Shown: positions 2,233-44,652 of the stretch, piece after piece
How the letters are laid out: every line of letters begins with the position of its first letter
Position numbering within the stretch: position 1 is the first letter of the stretch
Made by a program: the position numbers and the translations under genes
Origin: Candidatus Woesearchaeota archaeon
GTDB taxonomy: Archaea; Nanobdellota; Nanobdellia; Woesearchaeales; B72-G16
Assembly: GCA_003650545.1 (NCBI GenBank)
Contig: QMQO01000005.1
Location: 1 to 47,773, forward strand
DNA length: 47,773 nucleotides
Reading direction: 5' to 3'
Notes under the pieces: generated by a model
Told to the model about the DNA's origin: nothing
Database searches by the model: none
The model's input: only the letters and a program-made list of their open reading frames with translations

Positions 2233-2793
2233 TTACGCTGTGCGTGTGTTTATCATGATTAGTCCGATACCGATAACCAAAGAAAAAACTAGTGTCCATC
2301 CAGCTCGTTTGAGTAGCCTAGATTTTATTGGTAATATGTGCTGGCTTAATGAATATATTTGATTTTCAAAAGCTTCTGTTATCTTTTTGCTATTCTTTTT
2401 TAGCTTGTCTAGCTCTTTGATGTATTCGTTTCTTGTATAATATTGGCTGATGTTTTTATAGTAGAATATATCTTTTTTAATTCTCTCTTTTTTTGAAAGA
2501 ATTCTGATTTTTGGTGTGACGATTAGAATTGCCATCAAAAATGAAAAAAAACATCCTATTGCTATTATCCCCCAGCCTATCTTTAGGAGTAGAGGATAAT
2601 CTAAAAATTCTTTTCTTGTTAAAACACCCGCGGTATAAACTAGGATTAGACCTGAAGCACCCATAAGAAAGTTAGCTTTGTTGTTAAATTGGGTATCTAA
2701 CCATTTATTAAAATTTAAAATATCTCCTAGAATAGAACTAGACCATGCCCATGTCGGCTTTTTGCTCGCCCTCTTTTTTTTCTTTTTTGCCAT
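2233..2793 (-). CDS. Pycsar-effector-like (DUF5706/PycTM-like) membrane protein
   Basis: NNKANFLMG followed by two TMs, then P+IR...IFYYKNI...EY...ENQIYSLS...IKSRLLKRA and a final TM. This matches the DUF5706 layout as recalled. Confidence 0.7.
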   Translation of the reverse strand: MAKKKKKRASKKPTWAWSSSILGDILNFNKWLDTQFNNKANFLMGASGLILVYTAGVLTRKEFLDYPLLLKIGWGIIAIGCFFSFLMAILIVTPKIRILSKKERIKKDIFYYKNISQYYTRNEYIKELDKLKKNSKKITEAFENQIYSLSQHILPIKSRLLKRAGWTLVFSLVIGIGLIMINTRTA

Positions 2794-2846: not shown

Positions 2847-3872
2847 TCATGGTAGAATCAGGTTAACAGATTTTGGTACAACCCTGATCGTGATGGATTT
2901 CTTGTTGCCAAGGATTTCGCCATCAGCATGAACTGGTACAGGAATGTCGCATGTAATCTTAACCTTTTTTGCTTTGTGATAAAAGATGTCTTTTCTTTTC
3001 GGGTGTGTACCCCGAGTAGACTCTGCAATGTATATGTAAACATTGTTAAAGAACTTCTTTGATTTAAAAACACAAACATCTAGATATCCATCTTGCATAT
3101 TTGCATAAGGTGTCATGCTAAATATCAAGCTATAGTACTTGATATTGCTGACAACGGTTTGGTATCCTTCTGTTGTGTATTTGTCGTCTACAGTGATTTT
3201 AACCTTTGGTTGATCATAGAATAGTCCTGCACGTAAACTCGTCATTAAATAAGGAAATTTTCCTAAGTATTGTTTGAAAAAAGGATTTTTTTCGGTTTCT
3301 TCAAGTACCCATGCATCTATACCAACTCCAGCCATCAGCAAAAAATAACGGCCATTGATGTTGCCAGTATCTACTTTTTTTGCCTTACCATTGACTATAA
3401 GTTCGCAGGCAAGCTCGATCTTCTTGATTAAACCAGTTTCGTATGATAGAGCATTGCCAGTCCCAAGAGGAATTATTCCTAATTTTATTTTTTTGTTAAT
3501 AACACCATTGAGAACACTGTTAATCGTGCCATCGCCACCAACAGCAACAACGGTATCGTAACCCTTTTTAATAGCTTTTTTTGTTAGTTTTGTAGCTTTT
3601 TTTTCATTAGGCGTTTTTTTTATATCTAGTTTAATATTAGGGTACTTGCCAAAAACTGCTTTTATCTTAGGTCTGATTCTCTGTTCATTAACCTTGCGTG
3701 CTTTCTTGTTTATAATGATTAAAATTTTTCTTTCTTTTTGTGAAGATTCTTTCTTCAATCTTTTTTTAATCATACTTCGAATTTTCTTTTTCTGTTTAAA
3801 TGTTTCTTTCCTAGGCTCATTTTTTTTCTTTTTGTTTTTTCTTTTTCTTTTTTTTACATTTATCACGTTCAT
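2847..3872 (-). CDS. Diacylglycerol/lipid kinase family (YegS/DAGK) with a Lys-rich N-terminal extension
   Basis: VAVGGDGTINSV, IIPLGTGNAL, AGVGIDA, DGYLD and HADGE motifs. Confidence 0.92.
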   Translation of the reverse strand: MNVINVKKRKRKNKKKKNEPRKETFKQKKKIRSMIKKRLKKESSQKERKILIIINKKARKVNEQRIRPKIKAVFGKYPNIKLDIKKTPNEKKATKLTKKAIKKGYDTVVAVGGDGTINSVLNGVINKKIKLGIIPLGTGNALSYETGLIKKIELACELIVNGKAKKVDTGNINGRYFLLMAGVGIDAWVLEETEKNPFFKQYLGKFPYLMTSLRAGLFYDQPKVKITVDDKYTTEGYQTVVSNIKYYSLIFSMTPYANMQDGYLDVCVFKSKKFFNNVYIYIAESTRGTHPKRKDIFYHKAKKVKITCDIPVPVHADGEILGNKKSITIRVVPKSVNLILP

Positions 3873-4006: not shown

Positions 4007-5545
4007 ATGGTGCTAAAAGGTTCGCAAATATTTAAGCTAAAGAAATTTATAAGAGAATTAGCTCAACATAGGGGGCGCCATACAGAGTTAGTTAGTGTAT
4101 ATATTCCGCAAGGGTATGACATGAATAAAATCATAAACCATTTACAACAGGAGCAGGGTACAGCAACAAACATAAAATCTGCTTCTACAAGAAAAAATGT
4201 GATTGATGCCCTTGAAAGGATGATCCAACATTTAAGATTGTTTAAGAAAACCCCTGAGAATGGTTTAGCGGTTTTTTCTGGGAATGTTGCAGCTAAAGAA
4301 GGTCAGCAAGATTTGAGGATTTGGAGTATTGAGCCGCCTGTACCTCTAAAGCAGAGGCTGTATAGGTGTGATAAAGAGTTTGTGTTAGAACCATTGTCAG
4401 AAATGTGTGAGACTAAAGAAGTGTATGGTCTTGTTGTTTTGGACAGAAGGGATGCTATGCTTGCGCTATTGAAAGGAAAGGCGATAGTGCCATTAGTGAA
4501 AACACATTCTGAGGTGCCCGGAAAGTTTAAGGCAGGGGGTCAATGTTGCCATCCTGATACTTTGGTTCTATTGAGGGACGCTCAAATAAAAATTAAAGAC
4601 GTAAAAATAGGAGATAAATTGATTACCTATGATTTTAAAAATAATGATTCCAGCATTTCTGAATGCCTGAATATTTGGAAAACCCGAAAAGATGTACAGT
4701 TAAAAATTAAAACAGATGCTGGAAATATTATTGTGTCAGAAGATCATTTGTTTTTTGTAGAAAACAATGGTGCAACTTTGGAGGTGCCTGCAAAAGAGTT
4801 AAAAGTAGGAGATTTTTTATTAAAATTCAAAAATAGCGTCAAAGAAAAAAGAGAAAAAATAAATAAAATAAATAAAATAAAAATAATAAAAATAATGAAA
4901 GAAAAAGGTGAATTTGAAATGATAGATATCTCTGTGAAAAACCAAAACTTTATTGCAAATGGTTTAGTCGTGCATAATTCAGCAGCTCGCTTTGCACGTA
5001 TCAGGGAAGGAAGCATAAAGGCACATTACAAAAAGATTGCTGATCTAATGAAGGAGCAGTTCTTGCCGATGGGTGATAATTTGAAAGGAATTATCATTGG
5101 TGGACCAAGCACGACAACAACAGATTTTATTCATAAGGATTATTTGACGGGTGATATTAAGAAGAAGATAATAGGAGTTAAGGATTTGAGTTATACGGGA
5201 GAGTTTGGCTTACAAGAACTTTTAGATAGGAGTAAAGATTTGCTTTCAGCAGAAGAGGTCTCTGGTGAAAAAAAGATAATGGGAAAGTTTTTTGATTTGT
5301 TAAATACTAAGGAAAAGCAAGTGGCTTATGGACTGGCAGATGTCAAAGAGATGTTAGAGATTGGTGCGGTTGATACTTTGCTTTTGTCAGAATCTGTTGA
5401 TGATGAGTTGATAGAAGAACTAGAGAATAAAGCAAAAGAGATGGGTAGTGAAGTCAGGATTATTTCTGTTGAAACTCGAGAAGGAGTGCAGCTAAAGGAG
5501 ATGGGTGGCATTGCAGCTATTTTGAGGTATGAAGCAGAGAGATAG
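4007..5545 (+). CDS. prf1: Peptide chain release factor aRF1, intein-containing
   Basis: GRHTELVSVYIP, NIKS, YRCD, GGQ|intein|SAARFAR and GGIAAILRY motifs. Confidence 0.97.
   Translation: MVLKGSQIFKLKKFIRELAQHRGRHTELVSVYIPQGYDMNKIINHLQQEQGTATNIKSASTRKNVIDALERMIQHLRLFKKTPENGLAVFSGNVAAKEGQQDLRIWSIEPPVPLKQRLYRCDKEFVLEPLSEMCETKEVYGLVVLDRRDAMLALLKGKAIVPLVKTHSEVPGKFKAGGQCCHPDTLVLLRDAQIKIKDVKIGDKLITYDFKNNDSSISECLNIWKTRKDVQLKIKTDAGNIIVSEDHLFFVENNGATLEVPAKELKVGDFLLKFKNSVKEKREKINKINKIKIIKIMKEKGEFEMIDISVKNQNFIANGLVVHNSAARFARIREGSIKAHYKKIADLMKEQFLPMGDNLKGIIIGGPSTTTTDFIHKDYLTGDIKKKIIGVKDLSYTGEFGLQELLDRSKDLLSAEEVSGEKKIMGKFFDLLNTKEKQVAYGLADVKEMLEIGAVDTLLLSESVDDELIEELENKAKEMGSEVRIISVETREGVQLKEMGGIAAILRYEAER
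4544..4978 (+). mobile_element. Mini-intein (145 aa, no homing endonuclease) in aRF1
   Basis: Block A CCHPDTLV, block B IVSEDHLFFV, AKELKVGD, and blocks F/G MIDISVKNQNFIANGLVVHN followed by Ser+1. Removal restores GGQSAARF. Confidence 0.95.
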
Positions 5546-16530: not shown

Positions 16531-17883
16531 ATGATAGATAAAAGTACTCTTTTGTTGTACTATAAAAGGCAGGATATTCAACAAGCACTGGTTAGTCATG
16601 CTGCTAATAAAGAAGTGGTTGGGAGTTATGGTGGCGAAGGCTATGGCAAACGTCCAGATGTTCTGAATAATCCAAGGGATGTTCTTGAATTGGTAAAGAG
16701 GGGTGTAACCAGCTTTCATGCTTCTGAAGAGCTGTGGAGAAATCCTCTACTTCTTGATGTTGGCATGAAAAGAAAAGAGTTAGACGCAAACAGAAAGGGT
16801 TGGGATTTAATCTTGGATATAGATTGTTCGTATTGGTATTATAGTAAACTAGCTGCTTATCTGTTGGTTGAAGCATTGAAATATCACGGTGTTAATAGTG
16901 TTTCGGTGAAATTTTCAGGTAATCGGGGCTTTCATATAGCAGTACCTTTTGAATCTTTTCCAGAAAAGGTATCAGGCAAAATGTTCAATGAATTGTTTCC
17001 AGAAGGGCCAAAAAAAATAGCTGCTTATCTTTGTGATATGATAAAAGATAAACTTGCTGAGAAAATATTAGAAGTAGACGATATTCATGTTATTATAAAC
17101 AAGACAGGAAAAAGTTTTAACGAGCTCGTTAAAAATGGAAAGTTTGATCCTTTTACAGTGCTTAATGTTGATACAATGTTAATTTCTAGCAGACATCTGT
17201 ACAGAATGCCTTACTCGCTACACGAGAAAACAGGCCTGGTTAGTCTGCCCATAGCAATAAACGATATAATGACCTTCGAGAAAGAGATAGCTGATCCAAA
17301 GAAAATTAAACCTGATTTGGTTTTTATTGACAGAAGCAAAGCTGTTAAGAATGAAGCCGAGCAACTTATAATGCAGGCTTATGATCGTGATGTCAAGGAA
17401 GATCTTTTTATACAGGAAACTATTGAAAAGAGAGAGAAGAAATTTAAACAGGATTTTGAGGCATTTAATGATGTTGTTGCAGAAGAGTTTTTCCCGCCGT
17501 GTTTTAAGTTGGGGTTGCAAGGGTTAAAAGATGGTAGGAAAAGGTTTTTGTTCTGTTTGATGAATTTCTTAACTAGCTGCGGATGGGACTATGGGATGAT
17601 TGAAGAACGGTTGAAGAAGTGGAACCAAGCAAATGATGAAGAGTTGAGAGAGGTTATTTTGGTTGGGCAGTTGCGTTATCATAAGACAAATAAGAAGAAA
17701 GTACTGCCTCCAAATTGTGATAATAAAATATATTACAAGGATATTATGATATGCAAGCCAGACGCTTTTTGTTCTCGCATTAAGAATCCTGTTAACTATG
17801 CAATTCTTAAAGCGAAGATGTCTAAGAGCAGAAAGAAGGTAAGGAAGAAAAGGATAAAAAAGGAAGATAGTTCTAAGAAGTAA
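16531..17883 (+). CDS. Fused archaeal DNA primase (PriS catalytic domain + PriL Fe-S domain), DPANN type
   Basis: WDLILDID, FSGNRGFH and RMPYSLHEKT followed by FPPC...PPNC...C...C...KNP in one ORF. Confidence 0.92.
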   Translation: MIDKSTLLLYYKRQDIQQALVSHAANKEVVGSYGGEGYGKRPDVLNNPRDVLELVKRGVTSFHASEELWRNPLLLDVGMKRKELDANRKGWDLILDIDCSYWYYSKLAAYLLVEALKYHGVNSVSVKFSGNRGFHIAVPFESFPEKVSGKMFNELFPEGPKKIAAYLCDMIKDKLAEKILEVDDIHVIINKTGKSFNELVKNGKFDPFTVLNVDTMLISSRHLYRMPYSLHEKTGLVSLPIAINDIMTFEKEIADPKKIKPDLVFIDRSKAVKNEAEQLIMQAYDRDVKEDLFIQETIEKREKKFKQDFEAFNDVVAEEFFPPCFKLGLQGLKDGRKRFLFCLMNFLTSCGWDYGMIEERLKKWNQANDEELREVILVGQLRYHKTNKKKVLPPNCDNKIYYKDIMICKPDAFCSRIKNPVNYAILKAKMSKSRKKVRKKRIKKEDSSKK

Positions 17884-25933: not shown

Positions 25934-26527
25934 CTAGCTTTGCTTTAAGGCGTTATTAACTTTGGTGGCAAATCTTTTATCGTAATGTTTTAAGTATCTT
26001 TTTAATTTATTTTTGTTCATGTTTTTCTTGAATGTTTTGATTAGTTCTTTACTTAAATAACGCTTAAAATCTATCCAGTCAAGAAATGTTTTCTCAATAT
26101 CACTGACGGGTAGTTTGAAGTCATAATAATCTATGTAATGATACCCAAAAAAATGTTTTTTATTTATTAAATGAACAACAACATTCGTGTTGAATACCTG
26201 TCTTAATCCCTGCCTGACTCTTCTGGGTGTAATCAAAACAACATTTGCTTCTTGTTCCCATAGCCCGTATATAGAGAGCGCACTCTCTAGCCCAATGTAA
26301 GAGGGTTTGATGCAGTACGCCAAAAGCATAGGGTCATCGTGTGTTGTGTAGTAGCCTTTAATGATTCTATTGACTTTTCCTTTCCTTTCCAGATTGTGCA
26401 GAATTAAATAAGCATAATCGGGATCTGCGTTTTTTGAGCTTATAAGTCTTTTTATATCTTTAACATGGAACACTTGGTTTTTTTTTATAAAGCTTTCAAT
26501 TTCCTGTTGATATTTTATTTTGCCCAT
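25934..26527 (-). CDS. AbiEi-type antitoxin / transcriptional regulator (type IV TA)
   Basis: N-terminal wHTH with RIIKGYY, PSYIGLESALSIYGL and PVSDIEKTFLD. Confidence 0.88.
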   Translation of the reverse strand: MGKIKYQQEIESFIKKNQVFHVKDIKRLISSKNADPDYAYLILHNLERKGKVNRIIKGYYTTHDDPMLLAYCIKPSYIGLESALSIYGLWEQEANVVLITPRRVRQGLRQVFNTNVVVHLINKKHFFGYHYIDYYDFKLPVSDIEKTFLDWIDFKRYLSKELIKTFKKNMNKNKLKRYLKHYDKRFATKVNNALKQS

Positions 26528-27171
26528 TTTTTAATTGTTGTTAGTATGTGTTTTGTACTAGGAATAGCTCCAACAAAGACAAGCGTTTTTAGTATTTCTT
26601 CGTCTTTTGGTTTTTTGTATTCAGATATCAGCTTTTTCAAAGAGGCACTTATTTTTCTCTTATCGTCTACATGATTGAGCAGGGTGTATATGTCATAAAG
26701 ATCTCGTACAAGCCTCCTTGATAGGTATGTTGTAACCTTCTCTTTGATGAGGTCTTCTGCGGTTAATGTGAAGATGTTTATGTAATTTCCGTCAATGGTT
26801 TCATAAGGTTTGGTGATTATATGCTTATTTTTAAGGCTCAAGAAAGATGCTTCAAACCTGACTTCGATGTTATTGAAAGCTATTTTAGCAAAAATGACGT
26901 TGTCGGTTATTTTAAATTTTTTGATATTGAGTTTTCTTTGCTTTAGTTTTTTTTTGAACAAGTCAATTTTTTTAAGCTCGCTCTTGTCAAGATAAATATC
27001 TAAATCGTCTGAAAATCTAGATCCTGCATAACACCGCCATAGCGCTGTACCGCCGTGGAATACAGCATTCGGAAACACTTCGTAGATTATATCGACAACT
27101 ATATCCTGCAGCAGAGCGATGTCTTTATGCAATTTTTTCTTGAGTTTGTCTAATAATTTTAGTTTAACCAT
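26515..27171 (-). CDS. AbiEii/AbiGii-family nucleotidyltransferase toxin
   Basis: FHGGTAL...RFSDDLD...EKV...RRLVRDLYD motifs. Confidence 0.92.
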   Translation of the reverse strand: MVKLKLLDKLKKKLHKDIALLQDIVVDIIYEVFPNAVFHGGTALWRCYAGSRFSDDLDIYLDKSELKKIDLFKKKLKQRKLNIKKFKITDNVIFAKIAFNNIEVRFEASFLSLKNKHIITKPYETIDGNYINIFTLTAEDLIKEKVTTYLSRRLVRDLYDIYTLLNHVDDKRKISASLKKLISEYKKPKDEEILKTLVFVGAIPSTKHILTTIKKWAK

Positions 27172-30281: not shown

Positions 30282-30455
30282 CTATCTAAAACAACTCTAA
30301 AAGCTATATAAATCTTTTCAACATTTAGTTGCCATTTACGAGAAGTAACTGGACTTTTTAACTAGGTTTTTTATATGATTTTCAGATTGATTTTTAGAAA
30401 TCTTTATATATGAAAAAAAGATGTTTTGTACAGAAGGGTGGAAAAAAAGAGGGAA

Positions 30456-33400
30456 ATGATGAGAAAAGCTCGTTTATTATTATTTTTAATGCTATGTTTA
30501 GTGATTTTTAGTTCTAGTGTGTTTGCAGGTTTTCCTGATTATTGTGATGTTCCTGCACTTAGAGGAGGTAATTGTTGTCAGCTTGTTGGTTGTTTGGATG
30601 TTAGCTCGGCTGGGGATTGTGGTTATTATTCTGGTAAGGGTGTCAGGGCAGTGGGAAAGCCAACACTAACAAGAAGAGGCGATGGTTTTAAGCTGAAGTA
30701 TGTTTATTTTGTGAAGGGGACAAGAGCATATAATTCAGAGATTGGTGTGATAAGTGCAGATGGTGGAGAGCAGGTGTTGGGTGTTAAAGGACAGGATAAA
30801 ACAATCAATATATTAAGTGGAGATAAACCAATTAATGTGGCTTTGGTTTATATTCATCTGCCAGGTAGTGGGGGAGAGGGTGAAGAGCATTTATATGTGA
30901 CGATCTACACAGAGCTCGATGAAGACGGGCTTATGGCTCATCTACAGCCAGAAGAGACAAATATAGATGCAAGGATGGATGAGTTTGTAACAGATGTGTT
31001 TACTCCTCCAGAGTCAGATGAGGATGACTATGTACTTAGTGAGGATTTTAGTTTTCAAAGTGATGGAACTCTGCATCCTGGTTCTCACTGTGACTATTAT
31101 TCTGGTCAGTGTGTAACTTTAGATTGTAGAGATGAAGACCAAGACTGTGTACCAGAATGTATAAACCCTGATGTCTGCCCTGGGCCTGGCGATAACTTGA
31201 GATGCGCAGACCATACCTTTGGTATGTTTGACCAGTGTCCTAATAGTGGTGGGCGTGATTTAACAAAAACAGCAGGATGCTATGACATTCCTTATCCAAT
31301 AGACACACCTGGCTGTATACCTAAGCCAGATGGATCATGGGATTGCTCGATGGTGGGAGCAGAAACACCGCATTATGTCCATGGAGAGGTTTTCTGGAAT
31401 AATATAAGACTTGAGAATATGGGTGATATCTATGAGGAAAATTATGTCGAAGATGATTTTCTAGAACATGATAAAGCTTATATGTCGCCTTTTGGAAGCA
31501 CCTTTACTTATAGGTTTGACATTGGTTGTTATACTTTAGATAACAAACTGAAACAGGCCTGCGCATACGAAGCACCTGCTAATGTTTACCATGCCTTGTT
31601 TTATGGTGAGTTTTCGAGTCGTTTGGTTTCGACAGGGAGAAACGGTAAGCCATTGCTCTGTAGCCAGCTAAGCAGTCAGCTTGGAGGCCTGAGTTTTTCA
31701 GGTGGAGAGATTATATATTGCGATCTTGACAAGGTCAATGCATTGAGGGCTGACGAGGATCGTGAGAGATGCCAGGGAATCGTCCAGACCATGTATAATG
31801 ATTGTGAAGTGACTGGTAACGCAGATACAACATGCACTCAAGAGGAAGGTAGTTCAAGCAAGTTTACATCTTATAGTGACCCATCATTGTATCCAATTGT
31901 TTATCTGCCAGACTCAGAGGATGTAAATGTTAAGAGGAAAGAGACAGTGTATGAGGATGGAACTTTTATGAAAAAAATTGGGGGTAAAATGGTTCCAAAC
32001 CAACGTCTGGTGTCGCAGAGGTGCTGCGGCGATGATCCTTTTTTGCAGGATACTGGAATGCTTGCAGGAGATAAAAAATATCTCTGCACTGTCTTTGGAG
32101 AGAATAAAGATGGCTATAACATGTATGGCTGGCTTGATTACTCGTTAAACCAAGGAAATATCTTTGATGCCTTTAACAGGAGTGCACGGGAGGCCCATCG
32201 CAAGTATAAGATTGAATATTCGACAGATCTAAATGATTTTCCTTGGAGAAGTAAGTTTAGCGCAACAGGAGATGTTCCTCATGCTTTTTGGAATATAGCT
32301 ACTTTTGATGACGAGCAGTGGTTTGATGATCCAATCATAGTAGATGATATCCCTGGAATAAACACCAGAGCAATCTGGGACAGAGAAGGCTTTGGAAAGC
32401 CAGGCTATGTTTTTCTAAGGGGTGTGTTCAATCTCCCAGAAAGAATAGAAAGTGATGAAAATATTTTTTTGAATGTGTCTGCAGGGGACGACTATTATGT
32501 TGAGATAAACGGAAATGTGGTGGCAGAGGGTAGTGGTTTTAATACCATAGATGTTTCGGGAACATTACAGCAAGGTTTGAACATAATTGCGGTAAAAGCG
32601 TATGATGAAGATGGCGTTGACCCTGGGTTTGCTGCGGTGTTGTATGGAACATATGTTGGGGTTAATCCCCTGGAGCCTGAGCTTTTTGATGTTGAGCACT
32701 ATCATATTCTTGCTGATGATGAAGGTTGGGTGGCCTGCGATGCTTACAATGACGGTGCAACTAATTTTGTTGGAGGAAGAGTGTTACAGGAGAGAGACAT
32801 AGAGGAGTATGCTGAAACAACGGTTGAGCCTGAAGTAGTGTTCCAATATATGTGCCATAGTAATGAAAGTGCAGAGTATATTGATTTGCGGAGAGGGATG
32901 GGGTTTACTGAATCAGAAAATTCTGGTGAGTTTTTTTCTGTGTGTTCAGATAAAGAGCTGGATAACAGCCCTAATAAAAATCCATTAACAAATTATAGCA
33001 ATAAAGACATAGGAGAATATATTGCCGCGGGAAATAATATCTATTATTGTGTGGAATATCTTGGCAGTTATGAATGGAGAGATAATCTTGATAATGAGTA
33101 TGTGGCTAGTGCTTGCAATGCCGCTGGCCATGAGTTTAATGGTAGGTATTTTGTTCACACAGGAAGTAAATGCTGTGGCGAAGATTTTTTCAAGGGCGAA
33201 GCTGGCTATCTTGAATATTATAATGATGATATTGCTTCTCGCTACCAGCTACCTTCTGATTTTTTGTTGGGTGGGTGCTGGGCAAATGTGCCTGTGTGGA
33301 GCGATACAAGGTTATATGATTCTGCTAACTTTATCGTGAATGGTAATTTTAGCGATAATCCTGAAAAGGTTGGCTGGGTTGTTGATGATAATGTCAGATG

Positions 33401-35816
33401 GTATAAGATTGGAACTACACAAATGGTAGTGAAAAATAGGATTACGCCAGACGGATACTTTCTGATGATGGGTGATGATGATCTGCCCTCTTCAATCAAG
33501 ACTCGAGATTATATCCCTGTAAATGATATGGATTATTTTATTGAGGCGTCTGTGGCTGGAAAAGGACAAATCTTGAACTTCACTATTACATATTATGATG
33601 CTGAGTTTAATTATATGACTGAGGAAGTAATAGGCCCTGGGCTGATCGACGATGATGTTCTTTCTGAGATGCGGGATGAGGGTAATACTGGCTGGTATAG
33701 AGGAGAATGGGGATTTAGACCACCAGAAGGTACTTTTGCTATTAAGATCAAGGTAAATGTTGATGGTGATGTTTGGATAGATGACATATATATGCGGGGC
33801 AGTAAAAAAGTGATGAACTTTAAGGGCTGGTTCTATGGCTGTAATACCTCTGAAAGCAATCTTGCCTTAATGAATGAGACCAAGGATATAGGAGAGGCGC
33901 CTGACAATTTCTTGACTGATAAACCTCTTTTAAACCATAAAAACTTTTGCGAGTCAGTAAATACCTCACCTACAGAGTATGCGAACTTCTTCTGCTCTTT
34001 TAAGAATGGGGGAGAATGGAGTAGTGACGGGAGGGTGTTTGCTGATGGTTTCTCAGGGCAGACTGAGTATTATGCACCTTACCACCGTAACCAGTCAGCA
34101 AGCTTACCTAAACTAACAGAGCCAAGCACAAACCTAGAGCTTCAAGACAATGAATGTTGTCCTGTTGGTTATTGCTGGAATGGTACGGATTGTCTTGGAA
34201 ATGACGCGCCACATCCGCTAAACCCGACTATAGGCATGGTGTGGGATGCTGCAGGGATTAGCATGAATATTGGCGAGATCATTGCAGAAGAAGGCTATAG
34301 GGATGGAGAACGTTGCATTAATGGAAGATGGACATGGCAACGCGTTAAGAAAGATTGGAACAATAAGCGCGAGGGGTATTGTGAATTCGATAGCCAGTGC
34401 TTGGTACATCCTGAAGGTGTCTATGTCCCAACAGGGAATCCTTATGATCTGGACGGATTCTCGAATCTAGAGAATTATGATGATTTTATTGAACATCCTA
34501 CATCTGGACAGTTAGAGATAACACCTGCGTGCATAAACGATTCTTTTTTTATAAGGGATCATTACTGTAACAATGGAACCTGGACAACAAGGACAAAGTT
34601 GATCGCATCCTACCTGATAAACATGACAGATGCAAACATGGACTTTGTGCTACACTGTGATGATTCTTTCCTTGCTCTAAATCCTGTACAAGGCTCGTTT
34701 ATACTTGATGTGGCTGACTATGGCTTTGTGAGGGGTGTTGATGAGAATTATTATAATAATTTCTGTACCCTAACATTAAATCCTGGTTCACAAGAACAAG
34801 TGGTGGTTGGGAGCTCGATAAACCAGCTTTTGCCAACAAAAGATACAGCAGATGCTGATATAGGACAAAGATCTGTCTTTAGATCTTACCTAGTAAAAAC
34901 CGAAACCACATTGGGGAACAGGATAGAAGCAAAACATTGTGATGCTGCGATTGAAAATCCATTTATGAACTATACTGGCTGTGACATGGAAAAAGGAGAT
35001 ATCTGGTTTAACAATGCGACACAGTCAATACTTTACTCTAACAAAGAGATCAGTCCAGTTTCAATTTCCTGGCTTTATGACTATATTGATAATCTTGCTA
35101 ATTTTGGGCTAACAGGAAAGGCTCAACAGATTCTGGGGATAGATGTCAACCTGACTGCATACGCGTTTGACAAACTTTATGTTAATCATAGAGCAGATGG
35201 ACGCAGAGTTATTGGTTACTTTGCAAAGGCAGGCGAGAAGGATTATTACATGATCAATTTTACTGGCTTTGGCGTGAACCTCACTAGGTTTGCGGCTGGT
35301 CTTGGCCACGAGGTCGAGGAGCTGCTTAATGTAGAAGATAACATGATTGTGAGCAAACAGGGAAGTTACGAGAGCCTATCGCCTCTCTGGATCAAGCTGA
35401 CGGCTCATCTACGACTTGGGTTGCTAGAAGGAGAGGAAACAGTGGAAGAGGAAGAAGGGCTTACAGGCGATGAGTATTATTGTGATACAACAGGCGGAGT
35501 TTGGGTGGATGCAGGTAATTGTGAAGATACCTGTAGTGCAATGGTTGATGCACAGGGTTGCGTTACTCTGACAAGCTCTGGCTGTGATTGTGGTCCAGGT
35601 AGGTGCTGGGATGGACAGAGATGTATTGATGATGATGAGGCGTGGAGCGGGAGATGTGAAGCAGAGGGAGGAATCTGGAAGACAAATGACCAAGATGCAT
35701 GCACATTTTACTGTATTCCTGGAAAATGCGCTTCACAGATATTTAAAGGCTGCGACTGTGGCATTGGCAGATGTTGGAATGAAACTATAAATAAATGCCA
35801 ACCAAGATTTACATAA
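30456..35816 (+). CDS. Giant secreted Cys-rich protein with probable carbohydrate-binding jelly-roll domains
   Basis: Signal peptide ending VFA; W...FDDEQW...RAIW...FLRGVF...DDYYVEING...LQQGLNIIAV (glycosidase-associated jelly roll-like); NFIVNGNF...VWIDDI (CBM4/9-like); duplicated C-terminal Cys module. Confidence 0.85.
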   Translation: MMRKARLLLFLMLCLVIFSSSVFAGFPDYCDVPALRGGNCCQLVGCLDVSSAGDCGYYSGKGVRAVGKPTLTRRGDGFKLKYVYFVKGTRAYNSEIGVISADGGEQVLGVKGQDKTINILSGDKPINVALVYIHLPGSGGEGEEHLYVTIYTELDEDGLMAHLQPEETNIDARMDEFVTDVFTPPESDEDDYVLSEDFSFQSDGTLHPGSHCDYYSGQCVTLDCRDEDQDCVPECINPDVCPGPGDNLRCADHTFGMFDQCPNSGGRDLTKTAGCYDIPYPIDTPGCIPKPDGSWDCSMVGAETPHYVHGEVFWNNIRLENMGDIYEENYVEDDFLEHDKAYMSPFGSTFTYRFDIGCYTLDNKLKQACAYEAPANVYHALFYGEFSSRLVSTGRNGKPLLCSQLSSQLGGLSFSGGEIIYCDLDKVNALRADEDRERCQGIVQTMYNDCEVTGNADTTCTQEEGSSSKFTSYSDPSLYPIVYLPDSEDVNVKRKETVYEDGTFMKKIGGKMVPNQRLVSQRCCGDDPFLQDTGMLAGDKKYLCTVFGENKDGYNMYGWLDYSLNQGNIFDAFNRSAREAHRKYKIEYSTDLNDFPWRSKFSATGDVPHAFWNIATFDDEQWFDDPIIVDDIPGINTRAIWDREGFGKPGYVFLRGVFNLPERIESDENIFLNVSAGDDYYVEINGNVVAEGSGFNTIDVSGTLQQGLNIIAVKAYDEDGVDPGFAAVLYGTYVGVNPLEPELFDVEHYHILADDEGWVACDAYNDGATNFVGGRVLQERDIEEYAETTVEPEVVFQYMCHSNESAEYIDLRRGMGFTESENSGEFFSVCSDKELDNSPNKNPLTNYSNKDIGEYIAAGNNIYYCVEYLGSYEWRDNLDNEYVASACNAAGHEFNGRYFVHTGSKCCGEDFFKGEAGYLEYYNDDIASRYQLPSDFLLGGCWANVPVWSDTRLYDSANFIVNGNFSDNPEKVGWVVDDNVRWYKIGTTQMVVKNRITPDGYFLMMGDDDLPSSIKTRDYIPVNDMDYFIEASVAGKGQILNFTITYYDAEFNYMTEEVIGPGLIDDDVLSEMRDEGNTGWYRGEWGFRPPEGTFAIKIKVNVDGDVWIDDIYMRGSKKVMNFKGWFYGCNTSESNLALMNETKDIGEAPDNFLTDKPLLNHKNFCESVNTSPTEYANFFCSFKNGGEWSSDGRVFADGFSGQTEYYAPYHRNQSASLPKLTEPSTNLELQDNECCPVGYCWNGTDCLGNDAPHPLNPTIGMVWDAAGISMNIGEIIAEEGYRDGERCINGRWTWQRVKKDWNNKREGYCEFDSQCLVHPEGVYVPTGNPYDLDGFSNLENYDDFIEHPTSGQLEITPACINDSFFIRDHYCNNGTWTTRTKLIASYLINMTDANMDFVLHCDDSFLALNPVQGSFILDVADYGFVRGVDENYYNNFCTLTLNPGSQEQVVVGSSINQLLPTKDTADADIGQRSVFRSYLVKTETTLGNRIEAKHCDAAIENPFMNYTGCDMEKGDIWFNNATQSILYSNKEISPVSISWLYDYIDNLANFGLTGKAQQILGIDVNLTAYAFDKLYVNHRADGRRVIGYFAKAGEKDYYMINFTGFGVNLTRFAAGLGHEVEELLNVEDNMIVSKQGSYESLSPLWIKLTAHLRLGLLEGEETVEEEEGLTGDEYYCDTTGGVWVDAGNCEDTCSAMVDAQGCVTLTSSGCDCGPGRCWDGQRCIDDDEAWSGRCEAEGGIWKTNDQDACTFYCIPGKCASQIFKGCDCGIGRCWNETINKCQPRFT

Positions 35817-35945
35817 GTACATAACATAATAAGTATAATAACCAAACATCAGAATAACCAAACTAAACAATGTCAAATAAAATGAAAACAATAAACAATG
35901 AAAATCAAATTAACTAGAACTAAAAAAGAATGAAAAGTGAAAATC

Positions 35946-38165
35946 ATGAAACACAAGGGACAGATGACATTTTTCATGATCGTGGCAATAGCCCTGCTTA
36001 TGCTATTTGCGATTATATACTTTATATCAGTAAAAACAAAAACAGTGAGGCGGACTGAGATGTTGGATGTATTAGATGTAAGAAATTATATGGAAGCTTG
36101 TGTCAGGAATGTGTTGAATGATGGAATAGAACTGTTGAGCAAGCAGGGCGGTTACATATATAAATATCAGAATGGAAGCACTGAATGTTGTCCGATCAAG
36201 ATAATTGTAGAAGACCCCCAGACTGGGAGACAACGCGAATTCACTTTGGAAACTGTAGAGTATAGCGACTCTAGAGGCGAGTATAATGTTTCTTTTTCAC
36301 TGTATGCGCCATATATTCCTAACCCGGTTAATCTTTACCCTAGTCCACCAAATTATTTAGGTTATGTGATAGCGCCAATGCTGAAGAAAACCCTAAAGCC
36401 TGGGTTTTTGTCTGTACAGGATCAACTTAAATATTACCTGAACAATTCTGTTGGTGTTTGCCTAAAACAAGCGCAAGATGTGTTCAATAGTACTTATGAT
36501 TTTATAGTTTCAGAAGGAACACCAGTTCTAAATGTTTCAGTTTTCTTGAACAGGATTGATGCTGTTTTGAATCTTCCTGTGGTTGTCGGCAGAGGTGGAG
36601 AGGTTAAGACCTTAAAACGGTTTGGTGTTACATCTGATGTGCGTCTTGGTTTGGTTTACTCGTTGTTGTTCGAGTTGAATCCTGATGTTACTGACAGACC
36701 AGTAATGAGGAGGGATGCGTCTGAGGCTGATTTTGACATAACAAAGCCTGAGGTTTTTGAGGGTGTTGGTATAGAGGGTATTAGTGTTGGAAGGTATGAT
36801 GCCAGCACCTATGATGTTATTGTTGTTGAAGATAACAGGCATATATTGAATGGACAAAATTATCGTTTCTATACTGCTCGCGAAAATAGACCGCCTGTAG
36901 TAGCGCCTTACCAGGTGCAGGAATATGGGGTTGATTATTTTGTTACAGCTGGTGATACAATAGATATCAAGACATTGGCAGTTGATCCTGATGAGGATAA
37001 CATAACAGTGAAGATAAATGGTTGGGGAGCTGACTATTGTAATGTTGAACCGATGCATTTAGAGTTATGCGGACAGCCTTATCTGGACTATGTTGGGTTC
37101 ATGTATTTTACAGAGGGTGATGAATATGAACCTAGGCCTCAAAGTTGCAAATCTGGTTTTGAAAACATAGCAGATATCACAGATGGATATGTAGGTAGTG
37201 ATGATGTTCAGTTGCTTTGTGTTAATAAAAGCTATAAAGATGATGTTGGTCTAACTTCTCGAGATCCATCAACCAAACCATCTTGTCCACCTGGTTGTGA
37301 AGAAGCTGGCGAGGTCAGTAATAAGAATTGTGATTATGCTCATTCCTATTGTAATAGATTACTCTGTATTAAGAGCAGTAGCCCCATAGCTGGGAAGGTT
37401 AAAATAACAGAACCTAGCAAGCATGAAGATAAGCCTGAGTGTCCTGATGGTTTTAGAGCATATTCTTATATAAAGGATTGCGGTGCTGGCATTTGTCATG
37501 GCGATCAAACCCTTTGTCTGGGCCAGATTGAGTTGATGGCACCTGCGTCTGGCTGGGTTAAAGATGAAAACGGCTATCATTACGAAACCAAAAATGAGGA
37601 TGCTATAAAAAGTGAGATTTTTATTAATGCGACTGATCCTGCAGGCACAAGCGACTGGAGCATGTTAAGTATTATTGTGAATGATGTTCCAGAGCCAATG
37701 ATTATTCCTGTATACAATGATAAATGTAGATATGATTACAAACTTAAAGATAATTCTTTTTTCTTGCAGTTAGATGCTGGTGATAGGATTCCACAGTTAC
37801 CTCCAGGTGGTGTAGAACCCTATACTCAAGAAGGATATAAAATGGATATAAGTTGTACTGCAGGTAATACTGCAGGTAATGTAGAAGTTGTGGTGCAGCC
37901 ACCACCTCCTTATTCTAGGTCGTCTAAAATAGTGCAACTACAATTTAAGAAAAATGGAGTGGTGATTAGTGATGCAGAAATTGATAATCTTCGATGCGAG
38001 CTTGATGTTACTGATCCTTATGGCGCAAGAGAAAGTTCCGGATTTCAAATAGACAAAATCTGCGCTGCTAATTGTGGAGATCAATGCAGTATAGAGTTTG
38101 GTTTTGAGGAAACAGAAGTATCAATACCTGGAGTTTACAATTGTGAGGGAGAATGCATACCTTAA
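35946..38165 (+). CDS. Large Cys-rich protein with a class III (archaeal pilin-type) signal peptide
   Basis: MKHKG|QMTFFMIVAIALLMLF; VRNYMEACV...LSKQGGY; cadherin-like NRPP...DPDED; Cys-rich triplet repeat. Confidence 0.82.
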   Translation: MKHKGQMTFFMIVAIALLMLFAIIYFISVKTKTVRRTEMLDVLDVRNYMEACVRNVLNDGIELLSKQGGYIYKYQNGSTECCPIKIIVEDPQTGRQREFTLETVEYSDSRGEYNVSFSLYAPYIPNPVNLYPSPPNYLGYVIAPMLKKTLKPGFLSVQDQLKYYLNNSVGVCLKQAQDVFNSTYDFIVSEGTPVLNVSVFLNRIDAVLNLPVVVGRGGEVKTLKRFGVTSDVRLGLVYSLLFELNPDVTDRPVMRRDASEADFDITKPEVFEGVGIEGISVGRYDASTYDVIVVEDNRHILNGQNYRFYTARENRPPVVAPYQVQEYGVDYFVTAGDTIDIKTLAVDPDEDNITVKINGWGADYCNVEPMHLELCGQPYLDYVGFMYFTEGDEYEPRPQSCKSGFENIADITDGYVGSDDVQLLCVNKSYKDDVGLTSRDPSTKPSCPPGCEEAGEVSNKNCDYAHSYCNRLLCIKSSSPIAGKVKITEPSKHEDKPECPDGFRAYSYIKDCGAGICHGDQTLCLGQIELMAPASGWVKDENGYHYETKNEDAIKSEIFINATDPAGTSDWSMLSIIVNDVPEPMIIPVYNDKCRYDYKLKDNSFFLQLDAGDRIPQLPPGGVEPYTQEGYKMDISCTAGNTAGNVEVVVQPPPPYSRSSKIVQLQFKKNGVVISDAEIDNLRCELDVTDPYGARESSGFQIDKICAANCGDQCSIEFGFEETEVSIPGVYNCEGECIP

Positions 38166-41100
38166 TGATGAAAAACAAAAACTGGATGATTGCATTTGCA
38201 TTGCTAGTTTTATTGTTGTTTGTTAGCTATGTTAATGCTGGATGTTGTCAAAAGATTGATGGCACTTGTGTTCCTGTTGCTTATAGTGAAGAATGTATAG
38301 GTACTTATTCTGGACTAGATTGTGAACAGCTACTAATGTGCCAGGAGAAATGTTATGTTTTTCAGTTAGCTGGAACTAATAATCAGAGTTGTGAATGGAT
38401 AACAGATGCAACCAAGGACTATTATGTTTCAAATGGTCCGTATTTTTCAAGTCTCTATTTTTCCATACTTCAACCAGGAATATATAACAGAGAGGGTTGT
38501 CTGGATGTTTGTGTCAGTGGCGAGGTTCAGATTTGTCCGTCAGATGGGTGTTTTCCTGACACAGGCGGGTATTATAAGAATTGTGTGTTCTACCAGGATT
38601 GTCGTGGCCCAGACGGAGTAAGAGGTGGAATAGATTGTTGTCCTAGTGGTTATGAATGTAATCAGGCTCCGGATGGTGTCTGGAGATGTACAACCCCTAC
38701 CTGTATTCCTGAGTATGTGTGTGACGATATAAGAGATTGTGGACCAGGCATTGAGACGGGTTGGTGCAATACATGGAGACAGATCAATGTTTGTGATCGT
38801 CCAGATATACCAGCTCCAGAACCAGGCGATCCTGTAGCTTGTCCTGCGCCAAATCTTTGCAGCGAGCTGGGAAGATGCTATATAGATCCAGATACAGGAG
38901 AAAAGTTCATATGTTGGTATGTTGAGGGGGTTGGTCTTTCCCTAGTACCTGCTGCTGATACAGAATCTGTTCAAGGTGATCTGGAAAAGACAATGATGCT
39001 TTGTCATGATAACTTTGATAATGATTGTGATGGCATGATTGACTGTGATGATATTGGTGATCAAGGTCAACCAGATTGTGGGTTGGTTCTAGCTAGTGTA
39101 ACTGAGGATCCGAACACACCTTATGATGATAATTGTAATGGTGAGATAGACGATTTTCCAGGATCGCATTGCTATAACAATATTAGGGATGAGGGTGAGC
39201 TGGGGATTGATTGTGGTGATCCTGAAAATCTATGTGGTGATTGTTGCGAGAATGCTTATGCTGAAGTGGGAAGTTACAGTAATGGGCTTTATTATTATGA
39301 TATATTTCCTCCCATAGAAGATTATTCTTTTACTCCAGAGGTTGCAGAGACTGGCTTTAATTGTGGTGGTGCCTGCCTTAACAAGCCTTATCCTCAGAGA
39401 TGTCCTATTGGTAGTGGATGTAAAACAGATGCAGACTGTAACCAAGACATAGCTGGGTTTGCAGGTGAAGCTGAAGTCAGATGTGTCAAGGAACAAGGAA
39501 GCGAGTTTGGTTTATGCAGCTTGTGTATTGATAGGGATGGTGACGGCTATAACTCAACAGCAAGCATTGGTTTGTGCGGAGATGTCCTAGATTGTAATGA
39601 TAACAATATTCAAGCAGCAGTGCCAGGAGACCCTGGTTGTGTTGGGGTGTGCACAGACATAGCTGTTACTGGCTTGCAGGCAAAACCAATAAGATTTTCA
39701 CCTAAAATCAGGATAACATGGCTGCAGCCTAGCTGTCCAATAGACCACATACAAATCACAAAAAGGAACCCTTCTGGCAGTTCTGAATTTATTGAGGTTC
39801 CTGCTAATCAATTTGAGTATATTGACACGATTGATCAGCCAAAAAGTGTGTATAAATATTCTGTGACGATATTTTATAAAGATGGCCAAACAGCATACTC
39901 AGACGAGGTTTCAATCACAAGTAACATAGATGGTCGTGACATAACCTCTGGAGAGTTGTTCTGCTTTCAACCAAGAAAAGAGTTCTGTGTGAATGACGCA
40001 AGGATGGAATGTGACGAGGATAATTTTTATTCAGATCCGCCAATCGAGGTTTGCCGTGATCCTCCTGCAAAGAATAAAATATGCCGCGGACCAGATGTAA
40101 ACGGAGACACAATGTGTGTTGAGATTGCTAGATGCGATAAATGTAATGAACCATTTGGTGTGTTTGCAGAAGGCGGCAGAACACTATGGAAACCGCCAGG
40201 AGCTTTTGGCGAGCAAAATATAGATTGCAGTCAGGTGGATAGCTGCTATATTGATAGACTGAACTCAACAGTGAATGCTTATAAAAGCTGTGAGTTTGTC
40301 CAGAGCTGCTATGACTATGTTAGTAAGGAAGCTTGCGAGAAAAATAAGTGCGATGTGGGTCTTACTGCAAGGTTTGGAAAGAAATGTGAATGGTTGCAGA
40401 ACCCAGAATTTGCAGAACTTGGTGCAGGTATATGCAGGCCAGTAAACGAGTCTGAGTGGGACTGTCATGCATGCGAGCGTTTAGATAGTTTGCTGATAGG
40501 GGGATGCTCAAGAAGCAACTGCCAGTTGTTTGGCGAATGTTACTTTGCTAACAGGAATATATATGATGTTAATGGAATTGAAAAGCCATGGAGCTGCCGC
40601 AGCAAAGAAGAAACAGGATGCCAGTTCTACACAAATGAACAGGATTGTGTAAACTCGAGTTCGCCATTCTCAAAAGCAGGAGAACAACAAGTGGGTGGAG
40701 AATCAAATGTGTTTGCTACATGGCTCAGGGAAGATCATTCTGATAAGAGGGTTGGCGGAAGCCATGCTTTCTTGGACAGAAGCGATGATTATTTTAATTT
40801 TGGAACTTGTAAATGGGATGATGTGAGTGGGTGCTATAAAGATGCAAACAATAAAACTAATTCAACATATGGCGATCTGGAGAAGGATTGTAATGATTAT
40901 GATTACCTTTGTATCTGGGATAATACACCACCAACAACAACTCTTGATACTAATGGTGTTGTTGGCAGAGATATGCAGATGCTGTATCATGTAAACGAAC
41001 CTGCAACCACATATTTTTGTCTAACAAGAAGTGGCTTTTGCTACCCCAACAGAACCAGTGGGGATATAACAACAGCTGGCGTGTTCAGCCACATCTTTAA

Positions 41101-44100: not shown

Positions 44101-44440
44101 AATATTAAGGTATACAGTTGTAGGAACAGTTAACTACAGAACAAATGCTTTCTTTGTGGATATCTTAGGAGATATTGTTTCTGAAGATGTAAATCGTATC
44201 ATAGCACAAAACATCGAAGACATGGATAATACTCTGAGAGAAGGAAACATAACGGATGATAGGTTTAACATAACAGATGTAAACATCTTTAGCAGCCAGG
44301 GAGAAGATAAACTGAATCAGATAGTTGTTACTGCAATAGATGAGATTGATAATAGGGCCAACAAGACATTAAATATTTATCAGGATATTATTGGGCCGCA
44401 AAACCCAAATGTTACAATTATAGAGCAGGTGCTTGGGTGA
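38165..44440 (+). CDS. Giant secreted Cys-rich, FN3 and Ig-like repeat protein
   Basis: Signal peptide ending VNA; DNDCDGMIDC and CIDRDGDGY...DCND acidic motifs; FN3-like segment; repeated D.(A/G)GN...D...P Ig-like units; TAATG coupling to the upstream gene. Confidence 0.87.
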   Translation: MMKNKNWMIAFALLVLLLFVSYVNAGCCQKIDGTCVPVAYSEECIGTYSGLDCEQLLMCQEKCYVFQLAGTNNQSCEWITDATKDYYVSNGPYFSSLYFSILQPGIYNREGCLDVCVSGEVQICPSDGCFPDTGGYYKNCVFYQDCRGPDGVRGGIDCCPSGYECNQAPDGVWRCTTPTCIPEYVCDDIRDCGPGIETGWCNTWRQINVCDRPDIPAPEPGDPVACPAPNLCSELGRCYIDPDTGEKFICWYVEGVGLSLVPAADTESVQGDLEKTMMLCHDNFDNDCDGMIDCDDIGDQGQPDCGLVLASVTEDPNTPYDDNCNGEIDDFPGSHCYNNIRDEGELGIDCGDPENLCGDCCENAYAEVGSYSNGLYYYDIFPPIEDYSFTPEVAETGFNCGGACLNKPYPQRCPIGSGCKTDADCNQDIAGFAGEAEVRCVKEQGSEFGLCSLCIDRDGDGYNSTASIGLCGDVLDCNDNNIQAAVPGDPGCVGVCTDIAVTGLQAKPIRFSPKIRITWLQPSCPIDHIQITKRNPSGSSEFIEVPANQFEYIDTIDQPKSVYKYSVTIFYKDGQTAYSDEVSITSNIDGRDITSGELFCFQPRKEFCVNDARMECDEDNFYSDPPIEVCRDPPAKNKICRGPDVNGDTMCVEIARCDKCNEPFGVFAEGGRTLWKPPGAFGEQNIDCSQVDSCYIDRLNSTVNAYKSCEFVQSCYDYVSKEACEKNKCDVGLTARFGKKCEWLQNPEFAELGAGICRPVNESEWDCHACERLDSLLIGGCSRSNCQLFGECYFANRNIYDVNGIEKPWSCRSKEETGCQFYTNEQDCVNSSSPFSKAGEQQVGGESNVFATWLREDHSDKRVGGSHAFLDRSDDYFNFGTCKWDDVSGCYKDANNKTNSTYGDLEKDCNDYDYLCIWDNTPPTTTLDTNGVVGRDMQMLYHVNEPATTYFCLTRSGFCYPNRTSGDITTAGVFSHIFNMNDGGYWNLWYYSEDYGVYAPHGNLELVKNRTIFVDTLVGPLDFHFSYEPSLVGVDTYVSTLFVTVNASDPNKIMCFFMLHNSSGARMKDQADIQPFEENFTLDLVYPGLKDGIYYLNYTCVDGVGNVLKGRRDTRIDGDLSISNPQPSWTINYNLEDGAIPINITTQNRAVWCKYGFGKDAEPSFLFDTSEDGKFHEKVLTGVNTPTYLRGTNEIVYIRVKCNVTTSRGFKLAGMNTADDIIFAIDKTGPVTEVVDASSNKPAAVSGLFNHPVDLRLKCYDVPITNYGFPDKAFGCANITACINGQCSTLPPVCDEENCLTGGYRQLPTIYDTTTITYYSTDKGGNTGNVTEDVIRVDMQPPEFDFEVLDLDGEVVDIIGTGYHLINVTASDNNGQISSIPSKPKITISSRSGLVPTRNYTLENNMFVSIDPMPDDIETEVEVTVSGYDLADNLGSRTKYYMVDTKKPAPVTFMPAFDTFMKRDAHDPYRYYTNRSWFVSGKTSENNLTITFYIANDEHELINISSYNQKIIVGDNKPISPVVPPVVSPATQASHGVNFYQATGIEGENTIKTNKLVSLDHLQEGNYVLLDVDGFRRDYRHYGWYHKITGVSDVGNNYIVTLETPLTKSFQSPEPFYIYKKEIPEKWFGDETNLALGENIFFANVTDQAGNIGKGQVYVFLVDQEAPVLDFVYPGIGEMINEKNVIFDVRVKDLKKGSRVDQNSIKVLFDGVDVENFTLSAVAGNPNYDVVKISFKKKNLEYGTHNLSVNARDNAGNIIARDWGFEIVDVPAKPIMSFLTIAAGNPYAIDGKETYFLATDSNFTLSFKEDRIKLNNVAVDGSPLDCFNTSLNVFKCELLTSEGSHIINVKAQYYNSSFELSEEGNYNFYVVKDIAAPEFTLDYKSKARPNSTLRITANVLNEEHDVLMFLNFSNHFPRIYQQFYRLDWAVPNLADGSYIFPVTATDHAGNQKTVNMTIEIDQGLPVFNITDVLVHGFNRILRYTVVGTVNYRTNAFFVDILGDIVSEDVNRIIAQNIEDMDNTLREGNITDDRFNITDVNIFSSQGEDKLNQIVVTAIDEIDNRANKTLNIYQDIIGPQNPNVTIIEQVLG

Positions 44441-44652
44441 GGTTTGAGCATGACAGCAAATAAGGCGCAAAAATAATATGATGAAAATGCAAGGAGAAGA
44501 AAAAAGCCAAGGAGAAGAAAAAAGGTTGAATGAAAATTGTAAAAATAATTGTGTAAAAATAGATGATTCAAATCAATGGTAAAAATAAATGATATAAAAA
44601 ATGATGTAAAAAAATGATGCAAAAATAAACATGAAAACATGAAAATGTGAGT

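Follow-up and report, generated by a model that had tools for sequence, protein, structure and literature searches.

A class-1 mini-intein directly behind the catalytic GGQ motif of the release factor aRF1 in a Woesearchaeota archaeon

Results

The analysed DNA, a stretch of 47,773 nucleotides from a Candidatus Woesearchaeota archaeon (assembly GCA_003650545.1, contig QMQO01000005.1) that is referred to here as the window, carries on its forward strand a gene for a precursor of the archaeal release factor aRF1 (4007..5545; 512 codons and a stop). The 512-residue product of this open reading frame was identified as aRF1 by the NCBIfam model TIGR03676 aRF1_eRF1 (396 bits, cut-off 234.7), by above-cut-off matches to each of the Pfam domains eRF1_1, eRF1_2 and eRF1_3, and by alignment to the solved aRF1 structure 4af1 (E 1.8e-65). 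The host protein is encoded in two parts, both on the forward strand. The N-extein (4007..4543, amino acids 1 to 179, aligned to 4af1 residues 15-188) comprises domain 1 and the start of domain 2, and ends with the GGQ motif (G177, G178 and Q179, codons at 4535..4543 of the same strand), which all 59 aligned relatives share without change. The C-extein (4979..5542, amino acids 325 to 512, aligned to 4af1 from residue 188) supplies the remainder of domain 2, followed by domain 3. At the upstream junction, CAA (4541-4543) encodes Gln179, the -1 extein residue, and TGT (4544-4546) encodes Cys1 of the insert; at the downstream junction, AAT (4976-4978) encodes Asn145 of the insert and TCA (4979-4981) encodes Ser325, the +1 nucleophile. 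The translation around the insert reads KFKAGGQ/CCHPDT...GLVVHN/SAARFAR.

Comparison with uninterrupted proteins located the same boundaries. The alignment to 4af1 covers precursor residues 9-180, breaks off and restarts at residue 325, and chain residue 188, the Ser of GGQS, is aligned at both ends of the gap. Deletion of residues 180-324 therefore restores GGQS, and the product of this deletion, GGQ-SAARFAR, is colinear with GGQSAQRFAR of 4af1. Intein-free relatives of 366-427 residues match the precursor up to residue 180 and then from residue 325, leaving 181-324 unmatched. These results bear out the first-pass annotation, which had placed a mini-intein directly after the aRF1 GGQ at 4544-4978 and had made the catalytic Gln the -1 extein residue: the coordinates are exact, and the insert starts right behind Gln179.

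The exteins retain three motifs of aRF1, which we take to be those named NIKS (N55, I56 and K57), YxCxxxF (Y119, C121 and F125) and GGQ; all of these residues, together with S325, were invariant across 59 aligned mini-intein relatives. The 1.64-Mb assembly, which is 85% complete, yielded no second aRF1; given this incompleteness, a second, intein-free aRF1 is conceivable. The aRF1 in the window is the sole class-I release factor detected for this cell, and it is encoded as an intein-bearing precursor. For the archaeal Gln methyltransferase HemK2/MTQ2 (model TIGR00537), the best match in the genome reached 61-66 bits, below the cut-off of 87, and the best-matching open reading frame scored higher for RsmC (97 bits), likewise below cut-off. 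Scans of the window for tRNAs and Rfam families returned no matches.

The insert (4544..4978, forward strand) is 145 residues long, from Cys1 to Asn145, and was assigned as a class-1 mini-intein by Pfam, AlphaFold2 and Foldseek. The anticipated Hint-domain profile match was found with Pfam PF14890 Intein_splicing (E 4.9e-15; 56.1 bits, cut-off 35.8). The N-terminal intein model TIGR01445 scored 24.5 bits, equal to its cut-off of 24.5, and TIGR01443 intein_Cterm scored 23.2 bits against 15.6; the Pfam families Hint and PT-HINT gave weak matches below their cut-offs. All features of a class-1 intein are present, namely Cys1, the block B (T/S)xxH motif, the block F Asp, the terminal His-Asn and the +1 Ser; for the block A label and the (T/S)xxH definition of block B we follow what we take to be the usual intein nomenclature. 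Block A (4544..4561, forward strand) reads C1-C-H-P-D-T6; across 59 mini-inteins C1 never varies, and conservation of T6 is 90% or higher. Block B (4736..4747, forward strand) reads S65-E-D-H68, a variant of TxxH in which Ser takes the place of the usual Thr; both S65 and H68 are invariant in the 59 mini-inteins, and the Ser is therefore probably functional. Blocks F and G (4913..4978, forward strand; FEMID128ISV...F136IANGLVVH144N145) contribute the invariant D128, F136, H144 and N145. A Lys-rich, low-complexity linker occupies intein residues 95-111 (4826..4876, forward strand), the site at which full-size alleles carry a helix-turn-helix (HTH) and LAGLIDADG module. No endonuclease family (LAGLIDADG, HNH or other) was listed for the 145-residue insert in a Pfam scan to E <= 1, and the invariant residues are intact, so that the earlier statement that all splicing blocks are present and an endonuclease is absent holds. 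The insert is a class-1 mini-intein located exactly between Gln179 of GGQ and the following Ser, and it is predicted to splice.

An alignment of the intein with 58 mini-intein relatives was prepared before AlphaFold2 modelling. The resulting model was nearly all beta and had a mean pLDDT of 93.1 and a pTM of 0.85; the 10-residue mean pLDDT fell below 90 only in the Lys-rich stretch (82 over residues 91-100, 64 over residues 101-110). A Foldseek search of the PDB with this model returned 68 matches at E <= 0.001, and those listed were inteins or Hint domains of the BIL or Hedgehog type. The top matches were the inteins 6rpq, 4o1s and 4o1r (TM 0.84-0.86; PhoCDC21-1 at E 7e-11, TvoVMA and NpuDnaB at TM 0.85-0.86), and ranks 3-9 and 11 were BIL and Hedgehog Hint domains with similar TM. 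In a model of the whole precursor (pLDDT 86.7), the intein forms a separate beta domain between the aRF1 strand 159-167 and the helix 326-358, and the approach to GGQ (residues 173-175) has a pLDDT below 50. As modelled, the insert has the HINT fold. TvoVMA (4o1s), NpuDnaB (4o1r) and PhoCDC21-1 (6rpq) share with it this fold, the N-terminal Cys and the C-terminal His-Asn, at 25-26% identity; their hosts are a V-ATPase, DnaB and MCM, whereas the host of the window intein is a translation termination factor and its -1 residue is a catalytic Gln.

When precursor residues 160-345 were searched against a collection of 5.8 billion proteins, there were 329 matching proteins (E <= 0.001), and 120 of them were listed. 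Among the matches listed, the GGQ/C...HN/S architecture was present in 120 of 120 (110 recognised by a first pattern and 10 more on a second look), each with Cys1, the terminal His-Asn and Ser+1 at the same site, an agreement that is not due to chance. Three size classes were apparent in these 120: 64 mini alleles with an intein of 129-151 residues, 2 intermediate alleles of 275 and 427 residues, and 54 full-size alleles of 493-510 residues. The earlier suggestion to look for inserts at GGQ/S and for endonuclease-bearing alleles was thus productive on both counts. The full-size protein P0070, which was scanned directly, matched Pfam LAGLIDADG_3 and HTH_3, and precomputed Pfam lists give both families for the remaining full-size proteins as well; both intermediates kept the LAGLIDADG_3 match and gave no HTH match. 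Source names on the listed relatives include Woesearchaeota, Nanoarchaeota and Nanoarchaeia. The window intein is one member of a widespread family in DPANN archaea, not a one-off.

The names attached to these proteins vary. Some carry the JGI name 'peptide subunit release factor 1 (eRF1)/intein/homing endonuclease', and other listed relatives are labelled 'hypothetical protein', 'LAGLIDADG family homing endonuclease' or 'helix-turn-helix domain-containing protein'. Intein-bearing aRF1s that are named as something other than aRF1 constitute an annotation problem.

The full-size aRF1 inteins of Woesearchaeota and Nanoarchaeota (P0070, 880 residues; P0069; P0071) share site, host and a homologous splicing domain with the window intein. 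They differ in carrying a module of about 360 residues, comprising HTH_3 and LAGLIDADG_3, after residue 94, where the window intein has its 17-residue Lys-rich linker; in the multiple alignment, a 353-column gap opens after residue 94 of the window intein, at the start of that linker. Splicing-domain identity between the listed full-size alleles and the window intein was about 0.4 (0.40-0.42). Other mini alleles (for example P0027-P0029, P0004 and P0043) have the same site, size class and invariant residues. No mini allele is closely similar, and splicing-domain identity with the window intein reached 51% at most (52% over 122 columns). At 145 residues the window intein is larger, and its linker longer, than in most minis, which measure 130-138 residues.

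The splicing domain alone was used for a maximum-likelihood tree (120 rows, 130 columns), computed by a quick method and midpoint-rooted; such a tree does not separate loss of the endonuclease from its gain. One starred clade (SH-aLRT 97) contained all 54 full-size alleles, both intermediates and one mini, and the remaining minis lay outside it on longer branches. Size class changed 4 times on the tree, against a mean of 41 when classes were shuffled. The window intein fell within a starred set of 37 minis, on its own branch of length 0.41, with P0027-P0029 as its weakly supported nearest neighbours (84). Intein and extein identities were also compared across 109 proteins with near-complete exteins. 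Intein identity exceeded extein identity in 294 of 1081 pairs of full-size alleles (27%) versus 25 of 1770 pairs of minis (1.4%). By these measures, the full-size alleles show signs of recent horizontal homing, and the minis are apparently old and divergent, with long vertical descent and faster evolution than their host. A conserved DNA homing site was sought in the 24 nucleotides on each side of the insertion point in 8 intein-free alleles and was rejected: conservation was limited to first and second codon positions, with a pairwise mean of 31 of 48. The window junction was identical to the intein-free consensus at 34 of 48 positions, with nothing beyond codon conservation.

Within the intein, constraint was concentrated at a few positions. 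C1, W45, S65, H68, D128, F136, H144 and N145 were invariant in 59 mini-intein proteins, as was Ser+1 in the extein. Across all 21 pairs of 7 mini-intein genes, intein pN (0.30-0.47) was lower than intein pS (0.69-1.00), this being the only such comparison retained, since saturation of synonymous sites makes dN/dS for intein versus exteins unusable. In all 21 pairs, the nonsynonymous difference was greater in the intein than in the exteins. This pattern fits a domain that would be held to splicing and otherwise free to drift. The intein has a GC content of 27.1%, versus 39.5% and 38.5% in the exteins, and its AT-richness could reflect relaxed constraint and not function.

The frequency of the insertion was then determined among related genomes. 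Of 40 same-order genomes examined first, 3 contained an aRF1 frame that was long (854-982 residues), and 37 gave matches of the intein-free type only; wherever one frame contained both halves of aRF1, it measured 366-427 residues, and a few genomes gave one half only. A larger sample of 401 same-order genomes, which included G000, yielded matches to the junction query at E <= 1e-8 in 49. Five of these (G053, G340, G023, G336 and G006) were dropped, as the intein core alone had matched, in frames of 356-1455 residues. Four of the five are read as cases in which the intein would sit in another protein; the 356-residue frame of G006 had two stop codons flagged and was left out of the tally. After removal of these five core-only matches, the aRF1 intein is present in about 44 of the 401 genomes, with mini-sized frames of 491-535 residues in 13 of them. 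In a phylum-wide sample, 61 of 401 genomes matched at E <= 1e-10, or about 59 once G594 and G413, whose matches look like other inteins, are set aside. The 61 comprise the genome of the window, 29 others of the same order and 31 from other orders of the same class; whatever number of other-class genomes this phylum sample of 401 contained, none of the positives bore the label of another class. The unpublished genomes G112 and G370 are counted among the positives in both 401-genome tallies. Of the 80 best loci in titled public records, Cys directly followed GGQ in 18 and 57 were intein-free; of the rest, 3 were parsed wrongly by the pattern and 2 had no frame. Titled carriers include Woesearchaeota, Pacearchaeota, Nanoarchaeota and one Iainarchaeum, and the intein measured 138 residues in a Candidatus Pacearchaeota record and 141 in the Candidatus Iainarchaeum record.

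Discussion

The GGQ loop of class-I release factors has an established role in the peptidyl-transferase centre. Inteins typically reside in catalytic motifs of essential proteins, where they create the same dependence on splicing that is proposed here. We consider it very probable that the insert in the window is a selfish class-1 mini-intein in the sole detected aRF1, that it is removed by splicing, and that the unspliced precursor is inactive.

The canonical four-step class-1 pathway is the most likely route of removal, because the residues of a class-1 intein are present. After translation the HINT domain would fold, and the bond between Gln179 and Cys180 would undergo an N-S acyl shift through Cys1. 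Ser325, the +1 residue, would then attack the thioester; Asn145 would cyclise, releasing the intein; and an O-N shift would create a native Gln-Ser bond, yielding an aRF1 of 367 residues with an intact GGQ loop. Since this loop must reach the peptidyl-transferase centre, the precursor is expected to be inactive: a 16-kDa domain at the loop tip would block catalysis, and only the spliced protein would release peptides. If unspliced aRF1 is catalytically dead, as this reasoning suggests, termination would therefore depend on splicing. As no second aRF1 was detected in the 85% complete assembly, the termination capacity of the cell probably rests on this reaction.

The distribution of alleles suggests how the present state may have arisen. 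A selfish homing intein with LAGLIDADG and HTH domains would have entered the aRF1 of DPANN archaea, and in the lineage of the window the endonuclease would have been lost, leaving the Lys-rich linker behind. The direction would be loss and not gain, as the life cycle of inteins in general and the two decayed forms of intermediate size suggest. The intein would persist because a mutation that stopped splicing would inactivate an essential gene.

An alternative is that the mini-intein has been co-opted as a conditional gate on termination, responsive to redox, temperature or ionic conditions. The first-pass annotation had proposed one version of this idea, in which a Cys1-Cys2 disulfide makes splicing redox-conditional. 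Cys1 does lie next to Cys2 in the window copy, and there are documented cases of conditional splicing among other inteins of archaea, RadA being an example. The family, however, speaks against a redox switch as a shared feature. Among 110 parsed relatives, Leu was the most frequent residue at position 2 (65), followed by Cys (22) and His (8), with other residues in the remaining 15; Ile or Val accounted for 9 of the 110. Cys2 occurred in only 13 of 59 aligned minis and underwent 16 state changes on the intein tree. Position 41, which holds the only other intein Cys of the window copy, was Val or Ile in 42 of the 59 minis and Cys in 16. Cys1 has no conserved Cys partner, the sole invariant extein Cys being C121 of YxCxxxF. 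Positions 2 and 41 look like ordinary hydrophobic positions, and the redox proposal was rejected as a property of the family; a redox effect confined to the window copy is conceivable but found no support. In its broader form, a gate would accord with minis that look old and vertically inherited, the pattern expected under retention, and with the invariance of W45 and F136, which lie outside the listed catalytic positions. Yet the lethality of imprecise loss fully explains retention, and 37 of 40 and about 357 of 401 same-order genomes manage without the intein. We regard co-option as a gate as very unlikely. A related proposal, in which the mini-intein, long retained in several DPANN lineages at the catalytic Gln of the sole release factor, acts as a post-translational throttle and slow splicing under stress yields a GGQ-blocked, dominant-negative aRF1, is in our view quite improbable; were it true, the blocked aRF1 would read stop codons without hydrolysing peptidyl-tRNA, and a global stall or slowing of termination would follow.

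It is very improbable that the insert has lost the ability to splice and that this copy of aRF1 is non-functional or in decay. The AT-rich intein with its low-complexity Lys-rich stretch would be compatible with decay, and another aRF1 might lie in an unassembled part of the incomplete genome. Such decay is difficult to reconcile with an open frame of 512 codons, catalytic positions that are intact here and invariant in relatives, exteins that keep NIKS, YxCxxxF and GGQ, an intein pN below pS, and an assembly in which no other aRF1 was found. That the insert is a cleaving, non-splicing Hint domain that cuts aRF1 in two is extremely improbable, since the Foldseek matches of similar TM to BIL and Hedgehog Hint domains and the sub-threshold Hint and PT-HINT matches stand against an invariant terminal His-Asn and +1 Ser, a best-matching family, Intein_splicing, that is above its cut-off, and the interruption of a loop that can function only if continuous.

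The preferred reading of a selfish, splicing mini-intein also bears on the known range of intein hosts. To our knowledge, the classical hosts in InBase do not include aRF1. Among NCBIfam 'exception' models for intein-containing proteins, weak matches were obtained with those for RtcB, radical-SAM and Tes proteins and none with one for aRF1. Full-text literature searches returned no paper on a natural aRF1 or eRF1 intein. A giant-virus paper on BsV was considered as a precedent and set aside, as eRF1 and inteins occur there in different genes, and the searched terms were absent from a paper on Anaeramoeba. In the census of Novikova et al. (PMC4760082), few inteins are noted among the core components that serve transcription and translation, and release factors are not mentioned in the main text, the supplementary tables being a place where more hosts may be listed. 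The inteins of aIF2/IF-2 given in the main text of that census likewise reside in a core archaeal translation factor, but one that is a P-loop GTPase. The first-pass annotation had implied that an intein at this site would be rare and perhaps new. Rarity is contradicted by the many aRF1 inteins at the identical site in public data, and these also remove any novelty as far as databases are concerned; novelty stands in so far as we found none described in a paper. As far as searched, the aRF1 intein is plentiful in public data, partly recognised by an automated pipeline and apparently undescribed in print.

In its mechanism this is an ordinary selfish element, and by itself it reveals no new biology of termination. 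Its interest lies in the host and in the family. A class-I release factor joins the hosts of inteins, with the catalytic Gln of GGQ itself as the -1 residue, and a compact predicted intein compatible with Gln in the -1 and Ser in the +1 position may be of practical use. All stages that an intein passes through in its life cycle are represented at one site, from full-size homing alleles through two decayed intermediates to old minis. The aRF1 family would therefore offer a clean natural system for the study of intein fixation in the very small genomes of DPANN archaea.

Inteins elsewhere in the genome

The aRF1 intein of the window (4544-4978, + strand) is clearly without an endonuclease. As judged by profile search, the genome that carries it (assembly G000, 1.64 Mb) is intein-rich. 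Beyond aRF1, matches to the Intein_splicing profile were detected in eight genes (loci L029-L036), located on contigs C12, C14, C16 (two genes), C87, C7, C20 and C10 of this assembly. The host proteins were SMC, MCM, a PPDK/PEP-synthase-like enzyme, a DUF362 protein, an RNA polymerase Rpb1-domain-5 subunit, CDC48, an AAA/Mg-chelatase-like protein and RtcB, and the PPDK/PEP-synthase-like enzyme probably contains two inteins within a single protein. A LAGLIDADG_3 match was found at E <= 1e-6 in six of these eight genes; no such match at this threshold was found in RtcB or the AAA/Mg-chelatase-like protein.

Composition and relatives of the aRF1 intein

The GC content of the intein was 27.1% (GC3, 22.8%), as compared with 39.5% and 38.5% for the N- and C-exteins (4007-4543 and 4979-5542; GC3 about 35%) and 37.2% for the whole window. 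This low GC content may reflect a foreign origin, a composition rich in Lys, Asn and Ile, or relaxed constraint. At intein position 64, directly before the block B Ser65, the window's intein has Val (4733-4735), and Cys occupies this position in 31 of the 59 aligned mini-inteins. A second Cys close to the intein active site is thus frequent among the relatives.

Many records titled "uncultured Methanosarcinales archaeon" (L044, L045, L052, L055 and others) contain an aRF1 that is 60-80% identical to the DPANN-type aRF1 of the window. The same intein is present in some records bearing this title, and the titles may not correspond to the true placement of the organisms.

In the 85%-complete assembly, the aRF1 query returned no Pelota-like second match, and the same query in most relatives recovered one with E values of 1e-8 to 1e-13. 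For HemK2/MTQ2, the methyltransferase expected to modify the GGQ Gln, no match in this assembly attained the model cut-off. Given the level of completeness, either gene may still be present in the organism.

Other genes in the window

A 450-aa ORF (16531-17880, +) looks like a fused primase, because the DNA primase small (PriS) and large (PriL) subunit families both match it. Two matches were to defence-related families: 2233-2790 (-) matched a Pycsar effector transmembrane domain (PycTM; E 1.2e-10), and 26515-27168 (-) matched the AbiEii nucleotidyltransferase toxin (E 6.7e-16). A family match identified a diacylglycerol-kinase/YegS-like lipid kinase (2847-3872, -), which is extended at its N-terminus by ~45 residues that are strongly enriched in Lys. 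Four very large ORFs lie in series on the + strand, at 30426-35813 (1796 aa), 35937-38162 (742 aa), 38153-44437 (2095 aa) and 44647-47772 (>1042 aa). With either no Pfam match or single Ig-like or TSP3 repeats only, these ORFs may encode surface proteins.
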